A stretch of DNA of 33,456 nt, from IMG/VR virus record IMGVR_UViG_3300006167_000001. One strand, given 5' to 3'. The position numbers and the translations under genes are program-made. This DNA comes from a virus. Lineage: Duplodnaviria; Heunggongvirae; Uroviricota; Caudoviricetes. The notes under the pieces are model-generated. The model was not told the origin of the DNA. It did no database searches and saw only the letters and a list, made by a program, of their open reading frames with translations. Shown piece by piece: positions 1 through 27,165 of the stretch (within the stretch, counting starts at the first letter, position 1; each line of letters opens with the position of its first letter).

Positions 1-45
1 CTTTGAAAATTCTCCGGGGGATATTTTTTGAAAATTGTTTTGGTC

Positions 46-224
46 TGGGGCGGCATTTGAACGAGCCCACAAGGCGAATATTGGTCGGCGAGTCCCTTTT
101 TAGCTGTTTCTTGCTTTCGTCGGAGACACCTCCTCTCCTATTCACCAAAGCGCGAAAGTTTGAAATGGCTTTTTCTCCCTCGCCGGCGGATTCGTTTATG
201 CGGGCTCCTTCAAATGTCGCCCTA
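46..224 (+). ncRNA. Candidate structured leader RNA (long imperfect rod hairpin) upstream of the packaging operon
   Basis: Manual pairing: 46-61/209-224, 63-68/202-207, 74-79/190-195, 84-92/179-187, 102-110/162-170, 113-120/152-159, and 122-126/134-138 closing loop CACCTCC. Several pairs are G-U. No credible CDS covers the region. Confidence 0.55.
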
Positions 225-291
225 AACCATTTCAAAACCTACAGCATTCCCACAGTATTCATTGCAAAACTAACCGAGAGGAGGTGGCAAG

Positions 292-639
292 GTGGCGAAA
301 GCTGTAAAACCGTCTGGAACGACAAAGTCCCGCACCCCTCTAACCCCGGAAGCAAGAGAAAATCAGATGATATCTTTGGCCATGGACCTTGCCGAACAGC
401 AGTTGCGAGATGGAACTGCCTCTTCTCAGCTCATTACCGAGTTTGTCAAGCGTGGCTCTACAAAGGCCAGGATCGAGAAAGAGCTTTTGGAGAAGCAACG
501 AGATCTTGCAGCGGCAAAGGCCGAGTCCATTAAAGCCGCGGATCGTCTTGAGGAACTTCTGGATAAAGCCATGAAAGCCATGGGCAGGTATCGAGGAGAG
601 GCTGTGGATGATGAGGAGGAGTTTGATGACGGATATTAG
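292..639 (+). CDS. Putative terminase small subunit / conserved first late gene (115 aa)
   Basis: GTG start with RBS GAGAGGAGGTG (276-286). Helical, charged protein with an acidic tail, upstream of HNH and TerL. Function inferred from position only. Confidence 0.45.
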   Translation: MAKAVKPSGTTKSRTPLTPEARENQMISLAMDLAEQQLRDGTASSQLITEFVKRGSTKARIEKELLEKQRDLAAAKAESIKAADRLEELLDKAMKAMGRYRGEAVDDEEEFDDGY

Positions 640-1045
640 ATGCTATTCGGAATTGATGCTCCTCCCAACTTATCAGGCCCGGTACGAGTATCTGCGTCTG
701 AAAGGAGCGGTCGGAAAAGAAACCTTTGGCTTTGACCGTTATATGAACCAGTTCTTTTATCGTTCGCCTGAATGGCGACGTATTCGAGATCTGGTCATCA
801 CAAGAGACGAAGGTTGCGATCTTGGCATTCAAGGCCGAGAGATATTTGGCCGCATTATCATCCACCACATGAACCCCATCCGGCCTGAAGACATTCACAA
901 TCGGAGTGAGCTTCTTCTTAATCCGAAGTATCTCATCACCACAGTTCATGGAACTCATCTCGCAATACATTATGGCGACGAACATCTACTCCTACAAGAG
1001 CCGATTGAGCGCCGACCGAATGACACATGTCCGTGGAAGAGGTAA
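626..1045 (+). CDS. HNH endonuclease (packaging-associated type)
   Basis: Start moved to ATG 626 (RBS GAGGAGGAG 613-621). Motifs RDEGCDLG...IHHMNPI...HGTHLAIH. HNH genes next to terminase genes are typical of cos-type phages. Confidence 0.75.
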   Translation: MTDIRCYSELMLLPTYQARYEYLRLKGAVGKETFGFDRYMNQFFYRSPEWRRIRDLVITRDEGCDLGIQGREIFGRIIIHHMNPIRPEDIHNRSELLLNPKYLITTVHGTHLAIHYGDEHLLLQEPIERRPNDTCPWKR

Positions 1046-2409: not shown

Positions 2410-3294
2410 ATGGAACTGTCCCATCACGGTATCCTGAATCAAAAATGGGGCGTGCGACATGGGCCCCCTTATCCTTTGGGCGGCGGGGATTACAGTGCTG
2501 CCCAGAGAAAAGCCATTCGGAACAAGCGGAAATCTGGAAACAGCATTTACAACAAACGGCATTTCGATGAGGTGTTGAAAGCTGATAAAACCACTTTGAG
2601 CACCTTATCGTATGACCGGGATCGAACCAAGAACACCGATATGTTCTATGCAACCCACAACGTCCTCGACAAGCATCAGTATAACGCTTTGTTCAACCGC
2701 CCAATTCCTCAGACCATTTACGATGAGAATGGGAATGCGATCGGCACTGGAAACTTCATGAAGTACCGGATCGACAACTCTCTTAAGAAGGACATCAAAG
2801 TTGCCAGTGAGGATTCCGGCGCTGAAGTGTTTAGGGAGCTGTTCAAGAAAGACCGAGACTTTTACAACTTCGTCATGGACGAGGAACGGATGCAGAGCTA
2901 CTTTGTAAGCGACAAATACAAGTTCAAAGGTTACAGAGAAGTTCGTCAGGTCCTTGAAAAGATGAAGAGCGGCGACTACACTCCTACGGCGGATGAACTT
3001 CAGGTGGTATATCGGATGTTCAACTATGTCATCCCTTACGACGGTGCTGGTGATGCCCGTAAAGGAAAAGACGTGACGACCCAGCGGACTAAGTTCTTCA
3101 AGGCGCTCAAGGAAGCTGGATATGGGGCAGTCCTCGATACGAATGATGCCATTTATGGCGGGTTCAAGGCCAAGTCCCCGGTCATCGTGTTTGACATGGA
3201 GCAGGTCGTACCGAAAGACGTCTACCGTACGAAGATGATCGATCAGAAATTCTCGGATCTCGTGCTTGTCGGCAGAAAGATACTCGGGCAGTAA
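2410..3294 (+). CDS. HHG-leader protein 2 (MELSHHGILNQKWGVR...), with a globular, possibly ADP-ribosyltransferase-like C-terminal domain
   Basis: RBS AGGAGGGAG. Shares the leader. C-terminal ALKEAGYGAVLDTND...SPVIVFD resembles the GYD...vvF ending of ART-like folds (weak). Confidence 0.7.
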   Translation: MELSHHGILNQKWGVRHGPPYPLGGGDYSAAQRKAIRNKRKSGNSIYNKRHFDEVLKADKTTLSTLSYDRDRTKNTDMFYATHNVLDKHQYNALFNRPIPQTIYDENGNAIGTGNFMKYRIDNSLKKDIKVASEDSGAEVFRELFKKDRDFYNFVMDEERMQSYFVSDKYKFKGYREVRQVLEKMKSGDYTPTADELQVVYRMFNYVIPYDGAGDARKGKDVTTQRTKFFKALKEAGYGAVLDTNDAIYGGFKAKSPVIVFDMEQVVPKDVYRTKMIDQKFSDLVLVGRKILGQ

Positions 3295-5069: not shown

Positions 5070-5642
5070 TTGGATCATCGTAATAAGCCCCCGCCTCAGT
5101 CGTATTTGGCTCATCACGGCATCAAAGGCCAAAGATGGGGTGTCCGCCGTTACCAGAACGCGGATGGAACCTGGACCAAGGCTGGAAAGGAACGTTATGG
5201 CGATTCCGATGATGGAGGCGAGGAACGAAAAGCCTTCAGCAGTACCAAGAAGAAAGTGGCCATCGGTGTTGCGACTGGCGCAGCTGTTATCGCTGGCACA
5301 GTTCTGACGGCCTACCTTGTCAAGAAGCATGGAGCGAAGAGCGTCGCCGATATTGTGGATAAAGCTCCTGCCGGAAAGGAAATTCTTCAGGATTTGCTCA
5401 AATCTACTCCCGTGGCGACAACTCCTGTAAGTCAAATCCCGACACCGAAAGTAGAGCCCAAACAAGTTCTGGAAAAGGTTGTTAAGAGCGCTTCCACCAC
5501 AGCTGCTCCGGTCAGCCAAATTTCAGCACCACGAGTTAGCGTAAGCAAACCATCTTCGGAGATTCCGCCTGCCTACAGCTTTGAATCGCTGATACGGCAG
5601 AACGATGACCTCCTTAAAAAGATGCTTGCTGAGTTGGCTTGA
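5070..5642 (+). CDS. HHG-leader protein 3 (YLAHHGIKGQRWGVRRYQNADG...), with a TM-like segment and Pro/Thr/Ser-rich linker
   Basis: TTG start with RBS GGAAGGAGG (5054-5062). Hydrophobic VAIGVATGAAVIAGTVLTAYLV. Lies between terL and portal. Confidence 0.75.
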   Translation: MDHRNKPPPQSYLAHHGIKGQRWGVRRYQNADGTWTKAGKERYGDSDDGGEERKAFSSTKKKVAIGVATGAAVIAGTVLTAYLVKKHGAKSVADIVDKAPAGKEILQDLLKSTPVATTPVSQIPTPKVEPKQVLEKVVKSASTTAAPVSQISAPRVSVSKPSSEIPPAYSFESLIRQNDDLLKKMLAELA

Positions 5643-5661
5643 GGGAGGTGATGGTTACTGA

Positions 5662-10477: not shown

Positions 10478-10499
10478 GTATTTGAAAGGAGAAAAAGTC

Positions 10500-10919
10500 A
10501 TGCTGAAAGAAACGAGAACCTATAAGGACTTTGATGGTAAGGAGCGGACGGAGGACTTTTACTTCAACCTCTCCAAAGCCGAGCTTATGGAGCTGGAGGC
10601 CAGCGTTGACGGCGGTTGGCTGAACTCCATGAAGCGCATTATCTCAGCGCAGAACAACCCCGCTATCATGCGGGAATTCAAAAATATGATTCTCAGCAGC
10701 TACGGTGAGAAGAGCCCGGACGGGAAGCGGTTTATCAAGAGTCCGGAGCTTTCCAAGGCTTTCTCGGAGACGGAGGCCTATTCGGATATGTTTGTGGAGT
10801 TTTTCCAGCATCCGGATCGTGCCGCTAAGTTCTTTGCCGGCATTCTCCCTGCGGAGCTTAAGGCTGAGTTCGCAGACGCTATCGCTGCTGATGGAGCGGC
10901 GCTTCCGGCGCAGAGCTGA
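10500..10919 (+). CDS. Tail assembly chaperone
   Basis: ATG 10500 (RBS GAAAGGAG). Follows the major tail gene; acidic and helical (FYFNLSKAELMELE...). Confidence 0.7.
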   Translation: MLKETRTYKDFDGKERTEDFYFNLSKAELMELEASVDGGWLNSMKRIISAQNNPAIMREFKNMILSSYGEKSPDGKRFIKSPELSKAFSETEAYSDMFVEFFQHPDRAAKFFAGILPAELKAEFADAIAADGAALPAQS

Positions 10920-10948
10920 CTGGAAGTCATAGGGGGGGGGAGAGGGAT

Positions 10949-11491
10949 TTGCTAAAGCTCATTGTCCTGGGTCAGGAACATTGGGATGAAAAAAAGCAGG
11001 AATTTGTCTACAACAAGGAGGTGTCGCTGCAACTGGAGCACTCCCTGGTTTCCCTTTCAAAATGGGAGGCCAAATGGAAGAAGCCTTATCTCAGCAGAGA
11101 GCCGCTGTCCTATGAGGAAACCGTAGACTATATTCGCTGCATGACACTTACCCAGAATGTAGACCAGGATGTCTACCTCCGCCTTACCTCCGCCAACATC
11201 GCGGAGGTAAACCGCTATATAAGGGACCCCATGAGCGCTGCTCGAACACGTAAATCCAAATCGCCTGATGGGCACAGGCCCGTTATGACATCGGAGACGA
11301 TCTATGCTGATATGGTCGCGCTGGGCATTCCGTTTGAGTGTCAAAAATGGCATCTTAATCGCCTTATTGCGCTTATCAGGGAGTGTGATCGACGGAACAG
11401 GCCGCCCAAAAAGCTGAGTAAAGAAGAAATCATGAAGCGAAATATCGCTTTGAATATGGATCGCCGTAAACGGCTGAACACCAGCGGATAA
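10949..11491 (+). CDS. Second tail assembly chaperone (gpT-like position)
   Basis: TTG start after a G9 run, in the -1 frame relative to 10500. Motifs LEHSLVSLSKWEAKWKKP and FECQKWHLNRLIALIR. Confidence 0.6.
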   Translation: MLKLIVLGQEHWDEKKQEFVYNKEVSLQLEHSLVSLSKWEAKWKKPYLSREPLSYEETVDYIRCMTLTQNVDQDVYLRLTSANIAEVNRYIRDPMSAARTRKSKSPDGHRPVMTSETIYADMVALGIPFECQKWHLNRLIALIRECDRRNRPPKKLSKEEIMKRNIALNMDRRKRLNTSG

Positions 11492-25162: not shown

Positions 25163-26584
25163 ATGAAAATCATAGATTATGAGAAGGTCAAGCGGGTTGG
25201 CGCCAACGATGTGCTGCTGCTTGATGGTGAAAACGGAACCAAGACCATCCTGGCGTCTGACTTGGCCGTGGCTTTGATTGACCTGCTGCGTTCGGAGGAT
25301 TTTATCTCCGGTCTGACCATGACGGATCTGACTGCGACCGAGGGCCTTTCGGCAGAGAACATGCTCCTGGTGGGTACGGAAGACGGGAATAAGGCTATCC
25401 CGGCGGATGCTCTGGCTAAGGGGCTGATTACGCTTCTGAGCTCGGAGGAGTTTATTTCCGGCCTTGCGATGGCTGATCTTTCCGCCATCAACACAATTCC
25501 CGCTACAGACCGGCTGCTGGTAGGTACCAACGCCGGCAATAAGGTTATCACTGCGGCCAATCTGGCCAAGAGTCTGGTTGCGGCCTTGAGCTCGGATGAC
25601 TTTATCTCCGGTCTGACCATGAGTGAGCTGACAGATGTCACGACACTGTCAGCGGACAACAACATTCTGGTAGGAACCGCAGACGGTAACCGAGCAATGA
25701 CTGCTTCCAATCTGGCCAAGGCTGTGGTCAGCCTGCTCAGTGCGGGGGACTTTATCGCGGGGGTAAAAATGGCCGATATTCCCCAGGTCAGCGTCATTTC
25801 CGCTGCGGACAGACTGCTTGTCGGCACGGCTGCCGGCAACAAAGCCATCAATGCCAGCGATGCATTCTTCTCTATGCTGGACACGTTCATTGCGCCTGAG
25901 CAGCGTCGAATGACCTTCCGAGGGAAAAACCTTGGCGGCGCGGTCACGACAGCACAGAAGGCGGCCATCCGGGACGGCTCCTTTAAGGGACTCTTCCTCG
26001 GGGACTACTGGGTTATCAACAACGTTACCTGGCGGATTGCCGATTTCGATTACTGGGTCAACTGCGGCGATACTGCCGCGCCGCCCCACCATCTGGTCAT
26101 TGTGCCGGACACGGCCCTTTACAACCATGTGATGAACGACACCCATACCACCGAGGGCGGCTATACCGGCTCCAAGATGCGCATTGAGGGGCTGAACGCG
26201 GCGAAGACCACCATTGTCGCCGCCTTTGGTGATATGGTGCTGACGCACAGGGAAAACCTGGTAAACTCTGTGGCGGATGGGAGACCGTCCGGATGCCCGT
26301 GGACGGACTCCAGCGTGGAGATCATGAGCGAGATCATGGTGTATGGCTGTCACCACTTCGCTCCCACTTCGGACGGAACGATTGTCCCCGGCAACTGGAC
26401 CATCAGCAACTCCCAGTTGGCGCTGATGGCGGTGTGTCCCCGCTTCATCAAGACGAGGCAGGATTACTGGCTTCGTGATGTTGTGTCGGCGGCTAACTTC
26501 GCCCTTGTCGGCTGGGGTGGTTCCTCGGACTGCCGTGGCGCGGCGAGCTCTGTTGGGGTTCGTCCGGCATTCCCTGTTGGTTAG
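25163..26584 (+). CDS. DGR target: putative receptor-binding protein with 50-aa repeats and a C-terminal CLec-fold-like variable domain
   Basis: RBS AAGGAG. C-terminal YWLRDVVSAANFALV...GVRPAF contains the VR that matches the TR except at adenines. Confidence 0.88.
   Translation: MKIIDYEKVKRVGANDVLLLDGENGTKTILASDLAVALIDLLRSEDFISGLTMTDLTATEGLSAENMLLVGTEDGNKAIPADALAKGLITLLSSEEFISGLAMADLSAINTIPATDRLLVGTNAGNKVITAANLAKSLVAALSSDDFISGLTMSELTDVTTLSADNNILVGTADGNRAMTASNLAKAVVSLLSAGDFIAGVKMADIPQVSVISAADRLLVGTAAGNKAINASDAFFSMLDTFIAPEQRRMTFRGKNLGGAVTTAQKAAIRDGSFKGLFLGDYWVINNVTWRIADFDYWVNCGDTAAPPHHLVIVPDTALYNHVMNDTHTTEGGYTGSKMRIEGLNAAKTTIVAAFGDMVLTHRENLVNSVADGRPSGCPWTDSSVEIMSEIMVYGCHHFAPTSDGTIVPGNWTISNSQLALMAVCPRFIKTRQDYWLRDVVSAANFALVGWGGSSDCRGAASSVGVRPAFPVG
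25301..25900 (+). repeat. Four tandem 50-aa (150-bp) repeats in the DGR target
   Basis: FI(S/A)G..M..L.......A....LVGT..GN(K/R) units start at 25301, 25451, 25601 and 25751. TTTATCTCCGGTCTGACCATG is identical at 25301 and 25601. The fourth unit diverges at its 3' end. Confidence 0.85.
26484..26567 (+). repeat. DGR variable repeat (VR)
   Basis: 84 bp collinear with TR 27665-27748; 15 mismatches, all opposite TR adenines. Confidence 0.97.
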
Positions 26585-26591
26585 TAAATCT

Positions 26592-26608
26592 CGGGGCCTT
26601 GTGCCCCG
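26592..26608 (+). other. GC-rich hairpin downstream of VR/IMH (DGR target-recognition element)
   Basis: CGGGGC-CTTGT-GCCCCG, just after the target stop codon. Analogous to the hairpin/cruciform downstream of IMH in Bordetella phage BPP-1. Confidence 0.7.
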
Positions 26609-26635
26609 CGGCGATTTTGAGAAGGAGCATTCAAA

Positions 26636-26944
26636 ATGGATGAAAAAACCTACGCCATTACCCTGGCCGACGGCACTGCGCTTACCGGCCTGCGGCTGAA
26701 CGGCAACAACTATATTTCCGATGCGGAGATCACTCCCGCTATGTTCGCCGGCAACTGCTCTCCTGTGGTTATCAGCGACGGCGAAAACGAAGAAACCCAC
26801 GACAACATGAAGCTGATCCAGATCACCCATGTGGATGAGGAATACTGGTTTGTCCTGCTGGACGTCCCGGAAAGCGAGCTCCGGCGGCTGAAGATGCAGT
26901 CCGATCTGGAGTACCTGGCCATGATGACCGGCGTGGAACTGTAA
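26636..26944 (+). CDS. Hypothetical protein (possible fibre assembly factor)
   Basis: RBS AAGGAG; 102 aa, acidic. Ends MQSDLEYLAMMTGVEL, an ending commonly seen just upstream of XkdX genes. Confidence 0.6.
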   Translation: MDEKTYAITLADGTALTGLRLNGNNYISDAEITPAMFAGNCSPVVISDGENEETHDNMKLIQITHVDEEYWFVLLDVPESELRRLKMQSDLEYLAMMTGVEL

Positions 26945-26980
26945 AATTTTTGAAAGTTCCGTACGCAGGTGACCAAAATG

Positions 26981-26991
26981 TGTGTTACAAT
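26981..26991 (+). promoter_or_regulatory. Extended -10 promoter candidate upstream of xkdX-avd-TR-RT
   Basis: TGTG-T-TACAAT in an 80-bp intergenic gap; no canonical -35. Confidence 0.45.
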
Positions 26992-27023
26992 ACCCGAAAC
27001 TTTAGAAAGGAACTGGTAAGACT

Positions 27024-27164
27024 ATGGAACACAGCAGCAACTATGAAAAGGTCCGGGGCTACTATAGCATGAAGCTGTGGACTGAGACCCGGGTGCGCAA
27101 TGCCGTCAAGATGGGCTGGATCACCCAGGCGGAGTTTGAGGAGATTACCGGAAAGGCGTATTGA
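27024..27164 (+). CDS. xkdX: XkdX-family small protein (46 aa; absent from the ORF track)
   Basis: Manual translation MEHSSNYEKVRGYYSMKLWTETRVRNAVKMGWITQAEFEEITGKAY; RBS GAAAGGA. Classic 'vk.yY...lW....v..aV..gwIT.eey.eITG..Y' pattern. Confidence 0.85.
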   Translation: MEHSSNYEKVRGYYSMKLWTETRVRNAVKMGWITQAEFEEITGKAY

Positions 27165-27165
27165 T

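Follow-up and report, generated by a model that had tools for sequence, protein, structure and literature searches.

A conserved hairpin RNA at the head of the late block in 1706-like phages, with a loop complementary to early Shine-Dalgarno sequences

The left end of the genome and the late-block head

The window, a stretch of 33,456 nucleotides, belongs to a temperate siphophage whose DNA occurs in mouse gut runs. Base 1 was taken as the left end of the virion genome because numerous contigs start there and sequenced relatives, which begin at the same conserved element, end in GCATCGCC.., the motif that precedes base 1. In the 57-kb record of this phage (G000), CGCGGCGGT directly upstream of base 1 would form a 9-nt 3' overhang. 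A resemblance to boxA at this end was dropped, the sequence being variable and equal to the cos flank. Compared with G000, the window differs at 13 positions and nowhere else; all of them lie in 26495-26553, where gene 25163-26584 has its 3' end. A diversity-generating retroelement occupies 25163-29052, with its reverse transcriptase at 27859-29052.

The features of the left end are collected in Table 1. The product of gene 292, the first gene of the late block, had no Pfam match, its two-helix model had no PDB fold match, and it can be called a small terminase by position only; the HNH gene of the initial annotation was confirmed by its PHROG match. Between HNH and the head genes lies a small gene with a bacterial SH3 domain (1126-1503), and three genes (1891-2397, 2410-3294 and 5070-5642) start with a HHG(I)xxQKWGVR motif, two of them with DUF7211 matches, a degenerate copy of the motif being present in the upstream polymerase. 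Homologues of gene 292 and HNH were found in 241-243 records of the 1706/Oengus/Mudcat/ReqiPepy6 group, which has a YonO-like RNA polymerase in common (bioRxiv 10.1101/842583); in SPbeta the late genes are transcribed by YonO (PMC5467207). A polymerase gene with the DFDGD motif adjoins cos in 25 of the 26 genomes examined, the remaining one being truncated, and in G000 it lies just upstream of cos.

Table 1. Features of the left end of the window, and the internal start in relatives.
Feature	Position	Strand	Basis
Left end of virion genome, cos cut just before base 1, then conserved A-tract/CCCCGGGG element	1..28	+	Contig starts, relatives' ends
Structured RNA, divergent long family member, one copy per genome	46..224	+	z -9; 52.9 bits, E 3e-9, family model R1
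Rod helices	46-61/209-224, 63-68/202-207, 70-77/192-200, 80-92/179-191, 102-110/162-170, 113-120/152-159, tip 122-126/134-138	+	Folding
5' arm of outer stem conserved in family, pairs with 192-224; near-perfect duplex with pyrimidine mismatch	46..77	+	Two-sided changes at 33/34 pairs, 92% of cells paired
Internal loop, 5' strand, UCCCUUUUU	93..101	+	Lineage-conserved while flanking stems change
Tip hairpin with CACCUCC loop, lineage-specific	122..138	+	127-137 complementary to 276-286
Degenerate family-seed copy, UCUCCUAUUC for UCUCCUUUC, half buried in tip stem	134..143	+	Sequence comparison, fold
Internal loop, 3' strand, UUUUCUCC: fully exposed 8-nt seed complementary to GGAGAAAA	171..178	+	SD/spacer of early genes and internal PolB start in nearest relatives
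3' arm of outer stem	192..224	+	Folding, covariation
RBS of gene 292, GAGAGGAGGTG	276..286	+	Exact complement of 127-137
Gene 292, first of late block, 115 aa, two helices	292..639	+	PHROG 4259 (unknown function); model H19-40, H45-100
HNH endonuclease	608..1045	+	PHROG 4321, E 8e-61
Internal SD and in-frame start	L456:13473-13772; also L469-L501	minus (L456)	Conserved in replication gene of all relatives

A long hairpin begins 45 nt inside the left end. Folding returned a single rod of 64 bp (54 Watson-Crick and 10 G-U pairs), in agreement with the roughly 65 bp of the initial annotation, with an energy of -90.1 kcal/mol and a z of -9.0; none of 200 shuffles was equally stable, and the opposite strand reached -75.3 kcal/mol, some 15 kcal/mol weaker. 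The tip loop CACCUCC (127-133), which the initial annotation had recognized as an exposed anti-Shine-Dalgarno (anti-SD) core, was unpaired with a probability of 0.9. The internal loop was likewise located correctly and is unpaired (probability 1.0), its supposed symmetry being only near (9x8 nt). The outer-stem duplex 46-77/192-224 would be a candidate RNase III site. A perfect 10-bp pairing of 159-168 with 227-236 rivals the inner stem; it is probably incidental, since it is not conserved in the relatives L003 or L082.

Promoter and terminator scans, to which a promoter of a phage polymerase is invisible, detected no terminator-like site behind the hairpin and no sigma-70-like site within 200 nt upstream. 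Contigs of three mouse-gut metatranscriptome runs and of one run of unknown kind cover the hairpin, two of them running on into gene 292; being assembled contigs, these carry no strand, ends or level, and the libraries may contain DNA, so they were weighed on neither side of the question of transcription.

An RNA family common to a large phage lineage

Of 228 distinct loci upstream of gene-292 homologues, 198 held a long hairpin, compared with 6 among 226 coding controls; the loop contained CTCCTT in 181 of the 198 and CTCCTTTC in 152. Compensatory change among homologues had been suggested earlier as a check on the structure, and an alignment of 32 divergent members, in which the stem measures 30-40 bp, contained it: two-sided changes occurred at 33 of 34 pairs with 92% of the cells paired, while the most conserved columns were those of the loop motif. 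The loop retains (U)CUCCUUUC across the family, and over 94 lineages the median unpaired probability of this seed was 0.75.

The G-U pairs of the window had been taken as a sign of structure at the level of RNA, and the family bears this out. Under symmetric scoring G-U outnumbers A-C by 319 to 85 in the family stems, so selection is placed on the plus strand and on RNA; moreover, the plus strand folds better than the minus strand in 76 of 94 lineages.

A family model (R1), built from the 32 shorter homologues with the window excluded, matched 46-224 with 52.9 bits (E 3e-9) on the plus strand and 32.1 on the minus strand. The window has no exposed (U)CUCCUUUC seed; UCUCCUAUUC, half paired, stands in its place, together with the exposed UUUUCUCC and CACCUCC, which makes it a divergent member. 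Novelty had been made to depend on Rfam, and at the gathering threshold Rfam 15 returned no family match in the window or in the 32 homologous loci, where only chance matches of E about 1 or worse appeared. We conclude that the left-end hairpin is a real uncatalogued structured RNA, common to a large phage lineage.

The phages that carry it (1706/Oengus/Mudcat-like) have Clostridia, Lactococcus and some actinobacteria as hosts, and include Lactococcus phages 1706 and P092, FP_oengus, five Arthrobacter phages, Microbacterium phage Damascus and Curtobacterium phage Eevee, with one copy per genome; lytic phages are among them. None of the Streptomyces and Gordonia phages examined yielded the hairpin. 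Most members have it beside cos, where the late block begins and where 25-50 nt commonly separate it from the cos element; in Damascus and Eevee it lies about 2 kb from the genome end.

Further long hairpins were observed near genome ends. Arthrobacter left ends (L126:47-252, L131:52-505, L132:168-273 and L139:447-572) hold one or two more, with other conserved loops, GGUCUCA(A/G)AG and CACGA(C/U)CCGAACG, which suggests a small array of hairpin RNAs. Phages Bing, Kardashian (L413, L419) and Captrips (L416), which have no family hairpin, display a different long hairpin just before cos at the right end, with C/U-rich loops in the Streptomyces phages, a possible analogue of the family hairpin; a search of these three phages for a retargeted (GUCCUUUC) hairpin found none.

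Start sites complementary to the loop

The loop of Damascus reads as the reverse complement of a repeat found before several early small genes, and 13-14 nt are matched at four genes. Matches of a loop to start sites of its own genome reach 20 nt in 1706, 14 nt in P092 and 15 nt at 11 genes in Qui, and are found in several Clostridial prophages with distinct flanks. Among 23 genomes, with early and late classes assigned by gene position and genes called by a simple custom caller, a perfect complement of at least 12 nt to the own loop occurred at 60 of 1146 early start sites and at 7 of 551 late ones (OR 4.3, p 3e-5). Five of these seven late matches fall on one gene at the tail-chaperone position, which may be a deliberate late target of the loop.

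Loops also fitted their own early sites better than those of foreign genomes (+1.65 nt, p 4e-5, 14 lineages), the late sites giving +0.12 (p 0.34); these permutation tests used lineages thinned by k-mer overlap, among which some relatedness remains, and part of the signal could come from an SD preference general to the phage. In three hairpin-less phages, none of 111 early sites was of the GAAAGGAG type. Action in trans, which the initial annotation had offered as an alternative and directed at late GGAGGTG sites (in the window at 5644, 8774, 12670 and 29989; one more copy found here, at 11017, is intragenic), thus suits the family better than action in cis, although the targets that covary with the loop are GAAAGGAG-type RBSs of early and replication genes and not those late sites.

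A repeated promoter-like motif (TCGC, an A-run, then TATA(A/G)T or TTATGG) stands 15-40 nt before targeted early RBSs in the early regions of Damascus, Qui, Correa, Eevee, G001 and G010, and many targeted genes lie behind it. Around the gene at the tail-chaperone position, the window has a GAAAGGAGAAAA RBS at 10483-10499 (gene 10500), and a long hairpin is seen at the start of the gene that follows in six actinophages and one prophage (window 10919-10990; L135/L380 Damascus 11661, LilHuddy 13537, Correa 11530, ProfFrink 11955, Qui 22291, Bing 11854); in the window, nine consecutive G and a TTG start mark the junction, and this hairpin is a possible recoding signal.

One recurrent match of the loop lies inside the replication gene of about 1,300 residues, in which SF3 helicase, primase and PolB are fused (PMC4889955). 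At about residue 600, an SD with an in-frame ATG, GTG or TTG was present at all 55 distinct sites, and valines at this position are encoded by GTG in 16 of 16 cases, where 25% is the background. The DNA polymerase lies downstream of this point, so that use of this start would yield a stand-alone PolB of about 85-90 kDa, a predicted second product absent from annotations. The internal start also occurs in the hairpin-less Bing, Kardashian and Captrips.

For 37 Firmicutes lineages, the loop matched its own internal site over 10.7 nt, compared with 9.4 nt for the sites of others (p<1e-5), and in 17 of the 37 the match reached at least 12 nt, against 21%; in about half of the Firmicutes lineages it is shorter than 12 nt. 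Rare variants are matched between loop and internal site on both sides of the SD (GAAGGGAG, GAGATGTT, GAGAGGA and GAGAAAG). The match to the internal site shrinks to 6-7 nt in members from Arthrobacter and Microbacterium, hence the targets differ by clade.

For the window this target was taken from the relatives L081 and G001, because no replication module is present in G000; the two nearest viral contigs searched, L002 and L004, are incomplete. The related prophage of G001, measured from its integrase to its lysis genes, extends over some 94 kb, well above the 55-63 kb that is usual in the group. Both strands of the internal loop and the tip are nearly invariant in seven members of the lineage, while the stems between them vary yet still pair. 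The complement of the 171-178 seed, GGAGAAAA, occurs at the internal start in both of the nearest relatives that have a replication gene and, in G001, at 6 of 102 early sites versus 1 of 35 late ones; the match to early and internal sites amounts to 8 bp only. GGAGGUG sites, which the tip fits, belong to both classes (7 early and 6 late in G001), and the 11-nt form of the tip prefers the RBS of gene 292 by 4-5 kcal/mol. The loop of the window ranks its own early genes poorly, and a short-seed energy ranking over all start sites of G000 and G001 did not favour early genes overall, for which reason the claim of trans action specific to the window is weak. The window is an informative outlier, in which the seed seems to have moved onto the adjacent gene.

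Proposed action, rival readings and known systems

Taken with little better than even confidence, our preferred reading of these comparisons is that the hairpin is a late-made antisense RNA which damps the translation of early and replication genes in trans. Encoded at the head of the late (virion) block, the hairpin presents on a long covarying stem a pyrimidine-rich anti-SD seed, flanked by sequence that matches start sites of early and replication genes in the same phage; chief among its targets would be the internal PolB start, along with the start-associated sequences repeated at early small genes. After late transcription, probably by the phage YonO-like polymerase, an RNase specific for double strands, for instance RNase III, would cut the hairpin out of the late transcript or stabilise it there; pairing with the target RBSs would then block 30S loading, as for RsaE. 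Early and replication synthesis would be lowered, and most late genes, favouring GGAGG-type SDs, would escape. In the lineage of the window, the 8-nt seed would still fit GGAGAAAA early sites and the new tip seed GGAGGUG, gene 292 best.

The strongest rival places the action in cis, at least in this lineage and perhaps beside action in trans: the tip would open and form an 11-bp long-range pseudoknot with the RBS of gene 292 until stem cleavage or a protein frees it. The initial annotation had advanced such a switch on the ground of an 11-nt complementarity of 127-137 to 276-286, which is exact; four of those 11 bases (134-137) are locked in the tip stem, with an opening cost of 3.9 kcal/mol. 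Within the lineage of the window this proposal found some support. When all called start sites of G000 and of the related G001 prophage were ranked, the tip 11-mer paired best with the RBS of gene 292 (net about -16, the next at -11 to -12 kcal/mol); the tip-RBS duplex, at -20.3, comes near 16S pairing at -21.0; the linker of about 45-50 nt is long enough; and tip and RBS are kept in six of six relatives while the adjacent stems vary, one C-to-U change leaving a U-G wobble. Taken over the whole family, loops favour the adjacent RBS only slightly (-0.56 kcal/mol, p 0.011, median rank 0.44).

As a function of the family, however, the switch did not stand. The GAGAGGAGG-type RBS, almost restricted to late genes, is frequent before gene-292 homologues, including those whose loops have no tip match, so there is no two-sided covariation of tip and RBS. 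Irrespective of the RBS next to it, the loop reads UCUCCUUUC in most of the 94 independent lineages (TCTCCTTTC in 61 of 94), and a perfect match of at least 11 nt to that RBS was present in 5 of the 94, against 2.2% for foreign RBSs. The linker is too short for a loop-RBS pseudoknot in 18 of the 94, several being essentially zero, and its length is uncorrelated with that of the rod. In 1706, P092, Qui, L067 and L011 the hairpin sits at cos, with the gene-292 homologue 0.8-3 kb off, and secondary ACCUCC motifs are unassociated with a GGAGGT neighbour (p 1.0). Furthermore, to form an 11-bp helix the tip stem would have to open and one complete helical turn to pass through the loop, and the nested alternative fold costs 40 kcal/mol. 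The constant loop, the short linkers, the few long matches and the genomes in which hairpin and gene 292 are apart thus argue that a loop-RBS pseudoknot is not the conserved function of the family, and we consider the cis reading unlikely on the whole; in the window, where the canonical seed has drifted and the tip best fits the RBS of gene 292, an extra control of this gene may exist as a derived feature.

Less probable still is a leader for processing or stability that carries a generic mimic of the 16S tail, the stem being an RNase III site or a 5' stabiliser of late mRNA and the loop (compare ...CUCCUUUC at the 16S 3' end in the processing stalk) a decoy for a host factor or nuclease. This would agree with the long near-perfect stem and its recurrent mismatch, with a seed much more constant than any target, and with the position at the head of the late block, close to the cos element, where no terminator follows the hairpin. 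Such a mimic would not predict, though, that the loop flanks follow start sites of the same phage when these are early or internal but not when they are late, and the loops do not conserve the GAUCA of the 16S tail, on which account Era-type 16S mimicry was rejected. Finally, the element could be a cruciform in the DNA that serves packaging or recombination, or else the RBS of a mini-gene on the minus strand (an inverted early-gene start cassette). This reading recalls the place beside cos in most members and the SD-N7-ATG that the minus strand of the loop reads in several actinophages (gene 2 of Correa is annotated from it), but it is very improbable given the G-U excess and plus-strand stability described above, the distance from the end in Damascus and Eevee, the many Clostridial loops that lack a suitably spaced start codon, and the missing conservation of frames on the minus strand; a conserved minus-strand peptide was sought and not found.

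An antisense RNA of the preferred kind has counterparts. The C-rich motif of RsaE pairs with the SDs of several mRNAs and blocks the initiation complex (PMC2790875). With RsaE/RoxS-like sRNAs of Firmicutes the hairpin shares an unpaired UCC-type motif (the seeds of the window are 0.9-1.0 unpaired) directed at the SD of several mRNAs in Hfq-independent hosts, the initiation block being predicted here. It differs in being phage-encoded and one long rod, with the seed CUCCUUUC, predicted targets among the phage's own early and replication genes and no Rfam match, whereas RsaE is a multi-hairpin RNA with its own promoter and intrinsic terminator, neither of which the sequence scans found at the hairpin locus. 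The C4 RNA of P1 and P7 is cut from a longer transcript and its loops pair with RBS regions in trans, one part of a loop covering the RBS and the flanks giving specificity (PMC5320573); a phage RNA with RBS-pairing loops and flank specificity is also what we predict for the hairpin. C4, however, has about 77 nt and three stems, is processed by RNase P and maintains lysogeny, while the hairpin is a single rod of 100-200 nt at the head of the late block, lytic phages included, with no match to the Rfam C4 model. The hairpin would work like RsaE-type and C4-type RNAs, yet by the tests run it belongs to neither family.

Start-associated sequences (SAS) of actinophages and the repeat of Gordonia cluster DJ are conserved repeats at the RBS position before non-structural genes, whose role has been described as unclear (PMC7302621, PMC11008172). 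The sites targeted here are likewise unusually conserved repeats at that position before such genes; what differs is that phages of clusters AM, AU and EL and their relatives hold a complementary RNA in the same genome, the DJ and BI phages examined having repeats without the hairpin. We offer the complementary hairpin RNA as one reason for the conservation of SAS. In T7, gene 4A/4B has an in-frame internal start in a replication gene, and the leaders of T7 and of lambda N contain long hairpins cut by RNase III. The internal start reported here resembles the former, with the difference that it would release a stand-alone PolB from a helicase-primase-polymerase fusion, apparently under an antisense RNA, and the hairpin shares with the latter a long stem in a phage leader, being a candidate RNase III substrate by sequence.

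A literature search that left subscription papers largely uncovered gave no description of the hairpin RNA, and the main text of Fremin et al. 2023, on 10,000 candidate viral structured RNAs (PMC10690425), has no Shine-Dalgarno, HNH or cos-hairpin context. The predicted targets and the internal polymerase start also appear new.

The shut-off of early and replication genes by phages is known for few model phages, mostly via proteins. Here an uncatalogued RNA, spread over phages of two host phyla, co-evolves with their own early RBSs and with a hidden internal start; it gives the start-associated repeats a testable purpose and predicts a second protein missed by annotation. Culturable members are at hand in Lactococcus phages 1706 and P092, Arthrobacter clusters AM and AU and Microbacterium phage Damascus. 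In its widest form, which we put forward as a tentative idea, the antisense RNA would read an SD 'dialect' and so time the early-to-late switch in phages of Firmicutes and Actinobacteria: it would silence GAAAGGAG-type early genes and the internal polymerase start, spare most GGAGG-type late genes, perhaps hit host mRNAs with the same SD, and have been retargeted to the first late gene in the lineage of the window.
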